Notes under the pieces: generated by a model
Seen by the model: the letters and a program-made list of their open reading frames with translations, nothing else
The model's database searches: none
What the model was told of the DNA's origin: nothing
In this document: positions 2,274 to 50,984 of the stretch, piece after piece
Position numbering within the stretch: the stretch's first letter is position 1
Layout of the letters: each line of letters starts with the position of its first letter
Sequence record: NC_100129.1
Length of the DNA stretch: 50,984 nt
Strand: one strand, 5' to 3'
DNA from: a phage
Program-made: the position numbers and the translations under genes

Positions 2274-2485
2274 TGGCAAAGCAATTAAAACTTAAATGCG
2301 TAGAAACTTATAACTCAATTTGGAAATTCACGCGCGAAAAAGAATATCCACTAATGGGAAATCTCAAAGAAGATCCTCATGTAATTTCAGATAATGGTCT
2401 TCACCTTTATTTAATGGAATACAACGATGGATATATTGGTGCTGGTGTTCCAGGCCATAAATTTAAGATGAAAAATAAGAAATGA
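2273..2485 (+). CDS. hypothetical protein (70 aa)
   Basis: ORF, start overlaps upstream stop (TAATG). Confidence 0.5.
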   Translation: MAKQLKLKCVETYNSIWKFTREKEYPLMGNLKEDPHVISDNGLHLYLMEYNDGYIGAGVPGHKFKMKNKK

Positions 2486-2593
2486 GGCTGGTAATATTCC
2501 GCAACGCCTGGATGGTGGCTGTTGCAAATGACCATTACGGCGGCGACGGTAAACGCGCCGCTCGACACTCTTACTTTAACTGAGGAAAATATA

Positions 2594-2833
2594 ATGACTG
2601 CTAAATCAATCAAGGTTGAAAATATTCTTGCTGCTGTTAAGGCGCACCACCGCTTAATTGTTCGACTTGATAAAACAAGCGGAATCAGCCAATTAACCAT
2701 CACTGAGGGTAAAGGCGGTTACACTGTTGGCATTCATCCAGGCGGCAAGCTGCGAAAATTCAGCGAGGCCGGATTAAAAGAAATGCTGAATGAATACTCT
2801 TTTTACATTCAAAGTTGGAAGGATGCAAAATAA
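2594..2833 (+). CDS. hypothetical protein (~80 aa)
   Basis: Internal ATG with GAGGA RBS. Confidence 0.45.
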   Translation: MTAKSIKVENILAAVKAHHRLIVRLDKTSGISQLTITEGKGGYTVGIHPGGKLRKFSEAGLKEMLNEYSFYIQSWKDAK

Positions 2834-46941: not shown

Positions 46942-47027
46942 TTCTTCGTCTCCTCGTCTGCTGTAACAACATGATGCTTTCCTCTTTCGTTGTTGATGGG
47001 CTTACTATAAAGCAAGCCCGATGGAAT

Positions 47028-47047
47028 GCTTTAACAAAAAGTGCTAT
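47028..47047 (-). promoter_or_regulatory. dyad motif copy (reverse orientation)
   Basis: Overlaps stop TAG of small ORF 47044-47205; hairpin GGGCTTGC..TAAGCCC follows. Confidence 0.55.
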
Positions 47048-47205
47048 TTACGAACGCATAACGCTGTTACATCCTTCCCACTATCTGACATGTGGAGAAC
47101 AACTTGCTTTCGCGCTTCCAGGCATCTTGATTCGCCGTGGAACTCCTGCGACTCAATAGCTGCGGAGTTGTAACTTGTGACAAAGATTAAAAGCAACCAA
47201 GTCAT
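47044..47205 (-). CDS. small secreted/membrane protein (53 aa)
   Basis: Manually read ORF MTWLLLIFVTSYNSAA...; ATG overlaps upstream stop (ATGA); its stop TAG lies inside dyad motif 47028-47047. Confidence 0.35.
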   Translation of the reverse strand: MTWLLLIFVTSYNSAAIESQEFHGESRCLEARKQVVLHMSDSGKDVTALCVRK

Positions 47206-47741
47206 TTTAAACACTCCAAGCCGTGAGATTGCAGGTGAGCGTGTGGCTTGTCGTATTCCGTGACCTGATAGGTTGTGATCCCCAGGCTGCGGAAGTGCTT
47301 AACCACGTTCGGCGAATCGTCAAAGGCGCAAACAATGTTGCCCAATCCAATAGCGCGCAAGGCTTCTTCTTTAATAACCGTATCCTTTCGGTTGTCCTCC
47401 TGGCGGCGCATGATGATTTCGTCAAACTTCACGCCGTTCTCATTCAACCATTTGCATGTTTCATAGCGCACTTCGTCGCTGCGTCCGGTCAGGATAATGA
47501 CGGCGAATCCTGATACCCATAAACCGTTAATAACAGCAATCGTGCTCTTAATCGGTGAATCTCCGGCGGCTGCCCTGTTAAATTCGCTCCACGATTCCGT
47601 AAGGTGCAAGTTTTCGGTTGGCAGCAAGTGCAAACGATGCGATCCGTCCGATAGCGTGCCATCCAGATCAACGATAACAATAGGCTTGCTGGTCATTAAT
47701 TCGTATTTCTTGCCCCATAGTTCGAAAGTGTATTTTTTCAT
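47202..47741 (-). CDS. HAD-superfamily phosphatase (nucleotidase / polynucleotide 3-phosphatase-like)
   Basis: HAD motif I IVIVDLDGTL, motif II-like ILTGR, C-terminal Asp pair (AFDDSPN). Confidence 0.6.
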   Translation of the reverse strand: MKKYTFELWGKKYELMTSKPIVIVDLDGTLSDGSHRLHLLPTENLHLTESWSEFNRAAAGDSPIKSTIAVINGLWVSGFAVIILTGRSDEVRYETCKWLNENGVKFDEIIMRRQEDNRKDTVIKEEALRAIGLGNIVCAFDDSPNVVKHFRSLGITTYQVTEYDKPHAHLQSHGLECLK

Positions 47742-47751
47742 ATATTAATCC

Positions 47752-47934
47752 TTAAAATGTTTTATGGATGTATTCAGCAGTAGCCACAAGCAAAATGATC
47801 CATCCTGGAATACTGAAGCAGGTCATAACGAATGAATTATCATAGCTCAGTCTGAATTTATGCCTCGCACAGTGGATAAGCCACGCAAAAAGAAACACAA
47901 TCCAGCCGAGAACAAGCCGAGTAAAATCATCCAT
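47752..47934 (-). CDS. small membrane protein (60 aa)
   Basis: Two hydrophobic segments. Confidence 0.4.
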   Translation of the reverse strand: MDDFTRLVLGWIVFLFAWLIHCARHKFRLSYDNSFVMTCFSIPGWIILLVATAEYIHKTF

Positions 47935-48167
47935 TATTGCACTTCCTCAAATTCCGCGTCTGTAACCTGCTCGAACTCTGCAACTAAGTTTTCAAACGCA
48001 ACGATCTCAGTTCCATTCTCGCCGTTAAGGTAAAACTTGTATCCGTTGTTGCAGTGAACATGATAAGAGTGACCATCTCTTGTGTCCTTTTTGCCCTGAT
48101 ACACCTTTCCAGGCGTGAAGAATGGTCGATTGCTCTTAACGCAAAGAAAATGCTGTTCAATAATCAT
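47934..48167 (-). CDS. hypothetical protein (77 aa)
   Basis: ORF with GGAGATAAAAAATG RBS after variant dyad motif. Confidence 0.5.
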   Translation of the reverse strand: MIIEQHFLCVKSNRPFFTPGKVYQGKKDTRDGHSYHVHCNNGYKFYLNGENGTEIVAFENLVAEFEQVTDAEFEEVQ

Positions 48168-48219
48168 TTTTTATCTCCTTCGTTGAAAGTGAGGCCATTA
48201 TACCTGGCCCCACATTTGA

Positions 48220-48239
48220 GTTTTAACAATTCGTGCTAT
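48220..48239 (-). promoter_or_regulatory. dyad motif copy, variant (ATAGCACGAATTGTTAAAAC)
   Basis: Overlaps stop TAG; hairpin with TATAAT in loop (GGCCAGGTATAATGGCC) downstream on minus strand. Confidence 0.55.
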
Positions 48240-48454
48240 TTCTCAACACACACAGTTTCATCATACCAACCCACCATTACGACCTTTCCGACAAGGTATG
48301 TGCCATAAACTTTTTTTCCTGTCGTGTGGCACTCAAGCTGTGATGACTTGTATATATAATACCCACAAACGCTGAAAAGTATGATAAATACAGTGAATAT
48401 AGAATATGCCATTATCTTGAATATTGATTCGGCGCTCATACTTTCACCTTCCAC
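48236..48454 (-). CDS. small membrane protein (72 aa)
   Basis: Central TM (IMAYSIFTVFIILFSVCGYYIY); stop TAG inside variant motif. Confidence 0.45.
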   Translation of the reverse strand: MEGESMSAESIFKIMAYSIFTVFIILFSVCGYYIYKSSQLECHTTGKKVYGTYLVGKVVMVGWYDETVCVEK

Positions 48455-49329
48455 TTAACCATCGTTCCGCGCTTGATGCTGATCTCACCTGCAACCGTCC
48501 GGTTTTTTGCGCCGCCGTAGTGAAGCAGAAGGATAACAACATCATCATGAATCTCAATCGTCTTTGGTGTAGCCGTTAATTCATACCATGTACCATCATC
48601 AAGCTGGACTCCTTTTAGCGTGGCTGCAACTGGCATATCTTCAATTGCGCCCTGCGTTACGATTTCTTGATAGGCAAAGTCGCTCTTGTCAATACGCCAG
48701 CCTCCAGGCGCTTTCATTTCGGCAGCCGCTTTGTGGATCTCCTCGCCAATGATTTGATGAATTGACGTCTTCCCGCCGCCGAATGGTGTTTCTCCAAATA
48801 AGTGTTTTGTAATATCTTCCACGTAGTACACCTTATCTTTTTCGTTGTGTGGATTGTATCTATTGTGACCATCAACAAAGAAATCAACTTTCAACTCTGA
48901 TTTCTGACCATCGCTATAAACGCCATTGTCGCGCGATGTGAAGCGAATCGTTGAATTACCAACCGTGTAGAACGTGATCGGGTACTTGATATTGTCCACA
49001 CTTAAGCACCACAGCTTTTTGTAGTCGCATGTTTTCATCTCGACCATCTGAATCTCTGCGCGTTCCGGTGAGCGCACTGGCAACACCTGGCCTTTATATG
49101 GCTTGTAGTGGAAGCTGGTATATCCTGGCATTGCATAGCCATAGTCTTTAAGGGAGTTGTAGTGCGTATTGTGTGCATCAATAAAGTGTTCAATCTCAAT
49201 TGTTGATGGGCTTAGTTTGTCGCTATTCATATCAACCTTATGGCATGTTTTTTCATCGGTAAAAATGTAATGACCAATGCCGCGAGATTCGAATGTGATC
49301 GGGAATTTAATGTCAGCAAGTTTTAACAT
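48436..49329 (-). CDS. hypothetical protein with internal tandem duplication (297 aa)
   Basis: Two ~95-aa N-terminal repeats (KFPITFESRGIGHYIFT / KYPITFYTVGNSTIRFT) plus Gly-rich C-terminal domain; function unknown. Confidence 0.55.
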   Translation of the reverse strand: MLKLADIKFPITFESRGIGHYIFTDEKTCHKVDMNSDKLSPSTIEIEHFIDAHNTHYNSLKDYGYAMPGYTSFHYKPYKGQVLPVRSPERAEIQMVEMKTCDYKKLWCLSVDNIKYPITFYTVGNSTIRFTSRDNGVYSDGQKSELKVDFFVDGHNRYNPHNEKDKVYYVEDITKHLFGETPFGGGKTSIHQIIGEEIHKAAAEMKAPGGWRIDKSDFAYQEIVTQGAIEDMPVAATLKGVQLDDGTWYELTATPKTIEIHDDVVILLLHYGGAKNRTVAGEISIKRGTMVKWKVKV

Positions 49330-49406
49330 GGTATTTCTCCTGATTGGTTTTGTGGGCGACGCCGTGCCGCCCTATGTGATTTATTATGCCTGGTTATCGT
49401 TTTCGA

Positions 49407-49426
49407 GTTTTAACAAAAAGTGCTAT
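49407..49426 (-). promoter_or_regulatory. dyad motif copy (reverse orientation)
   Basis: Exact copy; CATAAT 22 nt downstream on minus strand. Confidence 0.6.
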
Positions 49427-49612
49427 TTAGAATTTTACCTCTTCCACAAGCTCAACCATTTTGTAACCAAGACGATAAGAGTCACCAAACAACAAGATCC
49501 CCACAAATTCATCGTGGCTTATTGACTCTTTGTCAACCGTTCTAAGCTCGCCGTTGTGAATCACAGTATCGCCGATCTTGATTTCTGATTTATGGACTAA
49601 TTTCGTTTTCAT
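49427..49612 (-). CDS. hypothetical protein (61 aa)
   Basis: ORF in early cluster. Confidence 0.45.
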   Translation of the reverse strand: MKTKLVHKSEIKIGDTVIHNGELRTVDKESISHDEFVGILLFGDSYRLGYKMVELVEEVKF

Positions 49613-49627
49613 CTATTCACCTGCTAA

Positions 49628-49828
49628 TCAAAAGAAAGCTACATAGTTTGCAATGCCTTTGGCGTCGTCGTTTGGCATTGCTTTTACAGCCAGGTCATAA
49701 CCCGCCTCTACCTTCTGCTTTGCTGTTTCTTCGTTGTAGCCCCAGATAACCAGGATTTTAACTACGTTTTCTTTGTTCAGGACTTTAAGGTCTTTTGTGA
49801 TGCGACGTGCCATTTTTTGTTTCCTCAA
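49628..49828 (-). CDS. hypothetical protein (66 aa)
   Basis: ORF with GAGGAAACAAAAAATG RBS after dyad motif. Confidence 0.5.
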   Translation of the reverse strand: MRKQKMARRITKDLKVLNKENVVKILVIWGYNEETAKQKVEAGYDLAVKAMPNDDAKGIANYVAFF

Positions 49829-49870
49829 TCTCGTTTCGATGAGGCTATTATGCCAGGTTTTGCACCTGGC

Positions 49871-49890
49871 GTTTTAACAAAAAGTGCTAT
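49871..49890 (-). promoter_or_regulatory. dyad motif copy (reverse orientation)
   Basis: Overlaps stop TAG of lipoprotein gene; hairpin, CATAAT, CCTCATCGAAACGAG leader, RBS follow. Confidence 0.6.
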
Positions 49891-50150
49891 TTCACGCTTG
49901 TTGTGTTCTGGTAGTGACTAACCGACTTACCTTCGTTAGTTGACCAGTTTGCGCTACCCTGGCAGTTGGTAAAGTACACGTATCGGCTATCGCTGAACCT
50001 GTACACATCGCAACCATCGACTGTAAATAGTTTTCTGACGTTGTAAGTATCGGCAGGGTTAGCCATTTGTGCATCGACGTAAGCACCATCACCATTACAT
50101 CCGGTCAGGAATGCTGTTGCCATAAAAACCGCCATTAATGCCTTATTCAT
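49887..50150 (-). CDS. small lipoprotein (87 aa)
   Basis: Signal peptide plus lipobox FLTGC; GAGGAG RBS; start overlaps upstream stop region. Confidence 0.5.
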   Translation of the reverse strand: MNKALMAVFMATAFLTGCNGDGAYVDAQMANPADTYNVRKLFTVDGCDVYRFSDSRYVYFTNCQGSANWSTNEGKSVSHYQNTTSVK

Positions 50151-50151
50151 T

Positions 50152-50613
50152 TCATTTCTCCTCGTTAACAAGATTGCGGATCATTTCCTGGTAGCGGCTT
50201 ATTCCTTCGCAAGCTCCAGCCAGTTTATCGCCTTGCATATCGGTAACGTTCGGCATTGATGCAAGAATGCGCGCGGCGAATTTTTCCACCGCCTTTGCCT
50301 GGACTGCTGGCAAGTCCTCGCTCGTTATCACCTTGCGCTTAACGTCGCGATTCAGCGTTAGCACATACTCTTTATTGTCGTCAGTTTCCTCAGTCCTGAT
50401 TCGCACCGCGCCAACCGCTTTAACTTCCGGCACTCGGTTGATGATAGTGCGGCTGTATGCCTGGTTTTTGGTGATCTTGTAGTAATCGTCACCGCTTAGG
50501 CTTGATGCCAGGTCGGTAAGCGAGATCCTAAACTCTGAAAACTCACCACTTGCCAGGCGGCGGCCAATTTCCCGCAGCCATTCGCAATAGTCCTTAGATG
50601 TCTTTTGATTCAT
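50152..50613 (-). CDS. hypothetical protein (153 aa), first gene of long minus-strand unit
   Basis: ORF with AGGAGG RBS adjacent to the large non-coding control region. Confidence 0.5.
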   Translation of the reverse strand: MNQKTSKDYCEWLREIGRRLASGEFSEFRISLTDLASSLSGDDYYKITKNQAYSRTIINRVPEVKAVGAVRIRTEETDDNKEYVLTLNRDVKRKVITSEDLPAVQAKAVEKFAARILASMPNVTDMQGDKLAGACEGISRYQEMIRNLVNEEK

Positions 50614-50984
50614 GGTTAGCCTCCTGTTGACCAGTTGCCGCCCATTATAAGTGCCTTTTAATTAGTGTCAATGTTTATTTTGTCCGTATAACGTTCGCGT
50701 CCTGTTCGCGTTGCCGACGTTTTGAGATAATCGCTACATAACCACATGATTTGCAATAAGTTTTTGCCGCTTGTTTTCTTTCTGTTCGCGCTGTTAGCGT
50801 AATATCGCAATAAAAGTATATATACATACTCATTCCACCAGGCGCGCAACTATCCATATATATACCAACAAAGCGACACCGCAACCATCACATACCACAC
50901 TAACAACGCTAACAAGAAATAACACATAAATATATACATAAATAAATATTCTTTATTTTCAATGTATTATAAGGGATTTATTTT
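50614..50984. other. large non-coding control region at window end (continues at 1-360 if circular/permuted)
   Basis: Three GTTCGCG repeats (50693, 50704, 50784); inverted copies at 56-62 and 66-72; A/C-rich tract and second copy of AT-rich element near 50935. Confidence 0.6.

Follow-up and report, generated by a model that had tools for sequence, protein, structure and literature searches.

T1-like phages serve as model viruses, are notorious laboratory contaminants and count as candidates for therapy; about half of their genes have no known function. What such a gene may encode is the question raised by a 297-amino-acid (aa) protein from the phage sequence NC_100129.1, of which the whole stretch of 50,984 nucleotides (nt) was analyzed and is referred to as the window in the following. 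The gene lies on the minus strand toward the right end of the window (Table 1), and a sequence-only reading had described its product as an internal tandem duplication followed by a Gly-rich C-terminal domain, with no family that could be named. Our analysis identifies the protein as a two-module variant of an already catalogued orphan family (PHROG 7116, or T1 gp70), which is not in itself surprising, and resolves it into what is predicted to be a "beads-on-a-string" architecture: Two α/β N modules of ~65–70 aa and an SH3-like barrel of ~78 aa are connected by two flexible linkers of ~35–40 aa.

Two Diverged Copies of a Small N Module

The open reading frame (ORF) list bears out the gene, and all of the peptides quoted in the sequence-only reading are present in its product: KFPITF...IFT (aa 8–24), HFIDAHNTHYN (aa 48–58), KYPITF...RFT (aa 115–131), FFVDGHNRYNPHN (aa 150–162), and PFGGGKTSIHQIIGEEIH (aa 182–199). 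A blastp comparison of aa 1–105 with aa 106–297 pairs aa 2–80 with aa 108–185 at 29% identity across 82 columns. The repeat attains a Smith–Waterman score of 65 compared to 28.7 ± 5.0 in shuffled sequences (z = 7.3), and none of 2000 shuffles scored as high, which places the repeat above chance. The duplication is further supported by an independent N-module profile, which was built from 19 modules of other lineages and from which both copy types of the window clade were left out: It matches the protein twice, at aa 1–69 (44.9 bits) and at aa 109–172 (77.0 bits), and shuffled versions of copy 1 reach at most 10.6 bits against it. While the duplication thus stands, its proposed size of ~95 residues per unit does not: The unit comprises ~65–70 aa and recurs with a period of ~107 aa, the rest being linker that has no counterpart in the other copy.

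The age of the duplication can be judged from the similarity of the copies to each other and to modules elsewhere. At the DNA level, no repeat between the two copies was detected, the best blastn match being 20 nt long. Moreover, each copy is closer to modules of other proteins than to its partner: Copy 1 yields a Smith–Waterman score of 194 with family member P0123, whose single module is its nearest relative, and copy 2 yields 203–387 with P0002 and 139 with P0127, compared to the score of 65 between the partners. These observations mean that either the duplication is old or the copies were joined by recombination. A recent tandem duplication was rejected in view of the ~29% identity between the copies and the absence of a DNA-level repeat, and the word "tandem", which suggests a recent event in situ, was misplaced; judging from the sequences, the two copies are ancient and were probably combined by recombination between diverged alleles.

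Copy 2 carries the canonical set of motifs. Of these, copy 1 retains PITF and HN, but a three-residue deletion has removed its NPxN loop; it also contains a hypervariable loop (aa 25–45). Modeled on its own with AlphaFold2 (AF2), the N module is predicted as a three-stranded sheet packed on one helix, with a predicted local distance difference test score (pLDDT) of 94.7 and a predicted template modeling score (pTM) of 0.83. The residues that are invariant among N modules belong to the hydrophobic core (P, I, F, F, F) and to a polar cluster located right after the helix (H154, N155, N158, P159, N161). No named family of known mechanism was found that shares either the sequence of the N module or a convincing fold, and comparison with the C module by hhalign gave a probability of 0.5%, identifying the two as unrelated.

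Predicted Fold, Linker 2, and the Constant C Module

An AF2 model of the complete protein, built with a family alignment of 30 sequences, has a mean pLDDT of 75 and a pTM of 0.35. It comprises three confident domains (aa 1–66, 105–178, and 220–297), in which most 10-residue blocks have a pLDDT of 85–97 and which are parted by two low-confidence segments (aa 67–104 and 181–214; pLDDT < 50). A Foldseek search of the PDB with this model returned nothing below an E-value of 0.3, which is a weak search because a floppy three-domain model makes a poor query; PDB sequence searches with the protein and with a profile of each module gave no match below E = 0.1.

The Gly-rich stretch, which the sequence-only reading had taken for a C-terminal domain, lies in the second of the two low-confidence segments, where a helix at aa 190–203 is the sole predicted element. 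The stretch (PFGGGKTS...) is not present in distant family members, and close alleles carry at least three linker-2 cassettes that are unrelated or variant. The allele of phage BEBK14 is near-identical to that of the window in its two N modules, its linker 1, and its C module, but in place of the Gly-rich stretch it has a longer, unrelated, helical sequence. The low confidence of the segment, its absence from distant members and the swap in BEBK14 together argue that the stretch is a swappable linker and not a domain; the real conserved C-terminal domain is formed by aa 220–297.

This assignment bears directly on the idea that the protein might be an enzyme with an unrecognized active site, either Nudix-like or nucleotide-binding, that acts via GGGK[TS] or via conserved Glu, His, or Asp residues. 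The motif GGGK(T/S) is kept in two of the three linker-2 cassettes as well as in P0123, and the C module provides the invariant or near-invariant E230, E259, E282, and R287 together with a frequent HDD motif. However, GGGKTS (aa 184–189) fails the Walker A pattern, for which we required [AG]x4GK[ST] within the strand-loop-helix of an α/β core, and the AF2 model contains no α/β NTPase fold around it, so that the nucleotide binding implied earlier finds no footing here; besides, the motif belongs to the very linker that is predicted with low confidence, missing in distant members, and exchanged in BEBK14. The HDD motif is not invariant but varies to DSE, DGE, NGN, and SDG, domains of 65–78 aa are small for an autonomous catalytic fold, and neither Pfam nor NCBIfam provides a match. 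The sequence-only reading had considered and dismissed Nudix, rightly so: The Nudix box GX5EX7REUXEEXGU is absent from the protein by strict as well as relaxed (at least REx2EE) regular expressions, there is no match to the Pfam NUDIX profile, and instead of an α/β/α sandwich of ~130 aa the predicted folds are small and β-rich. Overall, we consider an enzymatic function of this kind very improbable.

What remains constant across the family is the C module, with invariant residues at E230 and P233 and near-invariant ones at M232, A236, I258, E259, L268, E282, R287, and G288. The known structures to which its predicted barrel can be compared are SH3-like, KOW, and Sm barrels of the translation machinery (EF-P domain I, 6j7m_M; EfpL, 8s8u; the C-domain of uL2; the N-domain of Pelota; eIF5A; LSm), with which it shares 5–14% identity. 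It differs from them by its seven predicted strands, its own motifs (IEDMPxGA, RIEVHDD, NIKRGT), and its neutral to acidic charge, and no Pfam match or PDB sequence or profile match links it to these barrels; likewise, the combination of a Pfam EFP_N/KOW profile match with a modified Lys/Arg loop that marks the KOW-like domain I of EF-P and eIF5A was not found. Both modules are near neutral to slightly acidic, with a median isoelectric point (pI) of about 6 (6.1 for the C module) and a charge of −1 for the C domain of the window protein, which speaks against a classic nucleic-acid binder.

Another reading is that of an early protein directed at RNA or the ribosome, the predicted barrel of which would bind rRNA, tRNA, or mRNA like KOW, EF-P, eIF5A, uL2, or Sm domains and thereby influence translation or RNA metabolism of the host, perhaps in concert with the neighboring polynucleotide 3′-phosphatase. 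Synteny with the gene of this phosphatase, a HAD-type PNKP domain protein, is kept even in a Yersinia phage outside the Drexlerviridae, but may be mere gene-order conservation. In addition, Pfam KOW, EFP_N, and LSM profiles do not match even at E = 10, and the neutral to acidic domains are unlike most RNA binders, so that we regard an RNA-directed role as unlikely. The barrel could also be thought of as an SH3b-type cell-wall-binding or lysis accessory protein, since T1-like phages do carry a stand-alone SH3 protein, DUF7244, which adjoins the endolysin in the lysis module of Drexlerviridae according to a study of phage KanT1 (PMC13164509). This protein is likewise a small SH3-type barrel encoded by an accessory gene of T1-like phages, with its role unassigned (PMC13164509). 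However, it is the product of a different gene, which is located in the lysis module instead of the early operon upstream of pnk, it lacks N modules, and DUF7244 matches none of the 30 family members scanned. Considering also that there is no match to the Pfam SH3 clan, that the sequence contains neither a signal peptide nor a transmembrane segment, and that SH3b scores fall below those of translation-type barrels, this explanation is the least likely of all and scarcely probable.

Selection, Mosaicism, and Linker 1

The ratio of nonsynonymous to synonymous substitution rates (dN/dS) was calculated from codon alignments of eight full-length alleles that are 69–96% identical. It amounts to 0.21 for the whole protein, indicative of purifying selection, and the range of 0.13–0.24 across all modules and linkers implies that the protein is functional throughout (Table 1). 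The alleles are mosaic: On otherwise similar backbones, other linker-2 cassettes as well as another C-module allele (L010) occur. Some versions are disrupted. The homologue in phage haarsle (NC_049828, 1758..2639) has an in-frame stop in copy 1 (HMI*CHN), and P0125, P0128, P0132, and P0180 are frameshifted or truncated versions on near-complete T1-like metagenomic contigs. Copy 1 may be naturally disrupted in them, or else the sequences contain errors; their occurrence on near-complete contigs suggests that phages can in some circumstances do without the gene or, at a minimum, without copy 1.

Linker 1 is the most constrained part of the protein. Although its pLDDT is below 50 over aa 67–104 (about 33), it is near-invariant in an alignment of nine alleles. 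Disordered by prediction, the segment nevertheless has a dN/dS (0.13) below that of any other part of the protein; it is a candidate for a short linear motif in binding or for a stretch that becomes folded upon contact with a partner.

A Small Family with Variable Module Number

The absence of a nameable family noted in the sequence-only reading was confirmed, as scans of the protein against Pfam, NCBIfam, and PADLOC gave no match and the sole hit is PHROG 7116 ("unknown function", 173 positions; E = 4.6e-76, 255.6 bits). Positions 1–173 of this profile correspond to aa 108–296, and a second matching stretch corresponds to copy 1. Pfam scans of 30 family members at E ≤ 10 produced scattered single-member noise only. 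A word-indexed search retrieved 319 homologues, all unnamed or "hypothetical" and nearly all 295–297 aa long. The family is small, as just 43 members emerged from an exhaustive HMMER search across 1.84 billion representatives; a profile search of a set of 5.8 billion proteins with each module yielded truncated family members only and no new fusions.

The architectures of the family were assigned by hidden Markov models (HMMs) at the level of modules. The commonest one is N-C with 143–192 aa, represented by T1 gp70 (ST70, YP_003874.1, 161 aa, "hypothetical protein"), which has homologous N and C modules, matches both module profiles and occupies the same early locus upstream of pnk. T1 gp70, like roughly half of the phage records matched, has a single N module, whereas the window protein possesses an extra, diverged N module at its N-terminus plus the conserved linker. 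N-N-C is found in the window clade and independently in P0142, P0143, and P0147/P0152, and N-N-N-C in P0002 (374 aa). Furthermore, there are C modules alone with 78–81 aa (P0149, P0157, P0161), C modules behind unrelated N-termini (P0162, P0163/Yersinia phage YP10S2, P0131), and, in P0159, an N module joined to another kind of C-terminal region at the same locus. Alleles at this one syntenic locus differ in the number of N modules (0–3), may have unrelated N-termini, and vary in the linker cassette (three forms) and in the C-module allele, even between phages with an identical large terminase (TerL). The likeness to modular phage accessory proteins that combine a constant domain with swappable partners at a recombination hot spot is one of pattern only.

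With respect to hosts, the family is present in 227 annotated phage records, the hosts of which are Escherichia, Shigella, Salmonella, Citrobacter, and a few more; the two-module form accounts for about 110 of these records. Relatives of TerL are present in 1057 records, among them 442 Klebsiella phages, and none of the Klebsiella phages has the gene. No relative was found when 185,579 species genomes of bacteria and archaea were scanned with a C-module pattern from a narrow alignment. By this distribution, the gene is an accessory gene of virulent phages that is restricted by host lineage.

Several records required separate treatment. The apparent multi-repeat homologues P0150 (729 aa), P0153 (505 aa), and P0121 (375 aa) were discarded as artefacts of assembly or reading frame: They consist of concatenated units that are near-identical or of sequence that looks like a wrong-frame translation, and the module profiles match neither P0150 nor P0153. 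All three come from read-archive assemblies and inflate the apparent repeat numbers in the protein database. T1 ST71 (2344..2832), which is encoded directly upstream of gp70 and contains an internal repeat of its own (K(I/V)(K/R)LLSNGGY...P(I/V)(V/I)VD, twice), was rejected as a paralogue of the N module: Its HMM match (E = 9e-7) was circular because the profile held the ST71-like N-terminus of P0131, and a clean hhalign comparison gave a probability of 0.1%. P0131 itself is a natural hybrid in which ST71 (aa 1–86) and the gp70 C module are joined at a common IKP motif. In Vibrio phage Vc1 (2274..2791), the C module is annotated with 81 aa from a TTG start, without the first strand (IEDMPxGA) and with an ST71-like 82-aa gene ahead; the annotation possibly reflects a frameshift or a mis-annotated start. 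Finally, 12–21 "Campylobacter phage" records (e.g., A139 and A13a; host C. jejuni) contain near-identical T1-like coliphage sequence including this gene and look like coliphage contamination or mislabeling.

An Early Locus in T1-Like Phages

The window is in essence the complete genome of a T1-like siphophage, a coliphage of the Drexlerviridae, whose nearest relatives are Warwickvirus/Tempevirinae phages, among them MatMar and BEBK14. Megablast of positions 47000–50984 matched 162 phage records with a top identity of 95%, and the TerL sequences of the window and BEBK14 are 100% identical. The gene belongs to a series of small genes encoded on the minus strand at the right end of the window, and this block corresponds to the left-end early region of T1. 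The block is preceded by a perfect sigma-70 consensus sequence, which is likely the early promoter of the operon holding the gene. In the window, MatMar, T1, and metagenomic T1-like contigs, the gene is located upstream of the pnk/HAD phosphatase gene, and in every context examined the family locus is the T1-like early region between a DUF7174 gene and the gene for a HAD-type polynucleotide phosphatase.

Table 1. Positions of the gene, of the parts of its product, and of neighboring elements in the window.
Feature	Position	Strand	Residues	dN/dS	Remarks
Complete coding sequence, PHROG 7116 (T1 gp70/ST70 family)	48436..49329	-	297 aa	0.21	From the ORF list; TGA stop
N module copy 1, diverged	49123..49329	-	1–69	0.24	44.9-bit clean profile match; pLDDT 79–93 for aa 1–60
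Hypervariable loop of copy 1			25–45	0.43	
Linker 1	49018..49122	-	70–104	0.13	MPGYTSFHYKPYKGQVLPVRSPERAEI...; predicted disordered, strongly conserved
N module copy 2, canonical	48796..49017	-	105–178	0.14	Motifs YPITF, (I/V)xFTS, G-aromatic, FFVxxHNxxNPxN, YY
Linker 2, swappable cassette	48673..48795	-	179–219	0.20	Holds Gly-rich PFGGGKTSIHQIIGEEIH (aa 182–199)
C module, predicted seven-stranded SH3-like small β-barrel	48439..48672	-	220–297	0.17	Motifs IEDMPxGA, RIE(V/I)HDD, E(I/V)(N/S)IKRGT
Shine–Dalgarno sequence AGGAGA	49336..49341	-			6 nt 5′ of ATG; direct sequence reading; graded a strong ribosome-binding site
Putative sigma-70 promoter, TTGACA-16-TATAAT	50644..50671	-			Perfect consensus; 12/12 consensus match only
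ORF with lipobox-like motif	49887..50171	-	94 aa		
ORF with one predicted transmembrane helix	48236..48439	-	67 aa		MSAESIFKIMAYSIFTVFIILFSVCGYYIY...
Terminator-like hairpin, weak	47920..47902	-			
Gene annotated "polynucleotide kinase" in relatives	47202..47741	-	179 aa		Matches PF25109

The neighborhood of the gene offers some observations of its own. The ATG of the 67-aa ORF overlaps the TGA of the 297-aa gene (ATGA), and the ORF has no PHROG or Pfam match; the ~200 nt that carry it (about 48241–48440) are missing in BEBK14 and MatMar and look like a small insertion. The position of the weak terminator-like hairpin roughly matches that of the terminator annotated downstream of ST68 in T1. 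Within the same early operon, the 94-aa ORF shows a lipobox-like FLTGC behind a hydrophobic N-terminus and a match to DUF4884; its product is possibly an early-expressed lipoprotein and a candidate for superinfection exclusion distinct from Cor. At 179 aa, the product of the gene that relatives annotate as "polynucleotide kinase" is short: Its match is confined to the HAD phosphatase part of PNKP, and no domain of the kinase type was detected.

What the Protein May Do

On the basis of these findings, we tentatively favor a reading, to be held with clearly less than full confidence and as one possibility among several, in which the protein is a non-enzymatic multivalent binder or adaptor that acts early in infection in host takeover or counter-defence. 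The SH3-like barrel of the C module would contact a conserved partner, the N modules would add binding sites through their conserved polar H-N-N-P-N cluster, and the number and sequence of N modules, including the hypervariable loop of copy 1, would tune avidity or specificity. This role would be specific to Escherichia, Shigella, Salmonella, and Citrobacter hosts. The assignment as early and accessory draws on the putative promoter with perfect sigma-70 consensus ahead of the gene, the homology to the T1 left-end early region, the absence from Klebsiella phages and the disrupted variants.

Four points weigh against this reading. A protein is called "binding" here largely because catalytic signatures are absent, and the near-invariant E230, E259, E282, and R287 of the C module or the H-N-N-P-N cluster of the N module could form a catalytic, metal-binding, or small-molecule site. 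Furthermore, linker 1, predicted to be disordered, is as conserved as the folded domains, which a simple flexible spacer leaves unexplained. Lastly, literature searches, including those by accession and locus tag, found no experiment, partner, or phenotype for any family member. T1-like phages lie outside the coverage of a preprint reporting an accessory-gene screen, and the PADLOC scan, which gave no match, uses models of defence and not of anti-defence proteins. The SECphi27 triggers Gp77 (Erf-like) and Gp54 (small, ~66 aa) were considered as possible equivalents of this protein and rejected, being different genes.

The variable number of N modules also invites a narrower explanation, namely that the protein serves as a sponge, or as a decoy, for an immune signal or sensor of the host: Each N module would sequester a small second-messenger molecule or a sensor of defence by its polar H-N-N-P-N pocket, and the copy number would set the capacity. 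An early accessory gene with a patchy, host-lineage-specific distribution, an N-module copy number of 0 to 3, a conserved polar cluster within a very small domain, a hypervariable loop with raised dN/dS (0.43), and the lack of an enzyme motif are all in line with this explanation. In contrast, copy 1 is without the NPxN part of the motif, and what is invariant in the family is the C module rather than the N module; we deem a sponge distinctly unlikely. We attach no higher probability to its most elaborate form, a decidedly speculative one: The N module would represent a new fold family and act as a copy-number-tunable ligand trap, the H-N-N-P-N pocket of which binds an immune sensor or signal, with the SH3-like barrel serving to anchor or oligomerize the array of modules; modules gained or exchanged at the recombination hot spot would adapt the phages to the defences of their hosts.

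Conclusion

Returning to the multivalent binder or adaptor that we tentatively favor, what was a single "hypothetical protein" now has a defined architecture, which comprises two new domain families outside Pfam, a constant core of predicted SH3-like fold, 0–3 N modules, and swappable linkers. The 297-aa protein is useful for annotation in this respect and is a reasonable candidate for a counter-defence screen; the domain boundaries and the natural variants can be used for pull-downs, deletions, and screens against defence systems. For T1-like phages, the analysis points to a single early locus that acts as a recombination hot spot and is limited to phages of Escherichia-like hosts. If the protein were indeed a counter-defence or host-takeover factor, the number of its modules would be a simple, readable marker of the arms race between these phages and their hosts.

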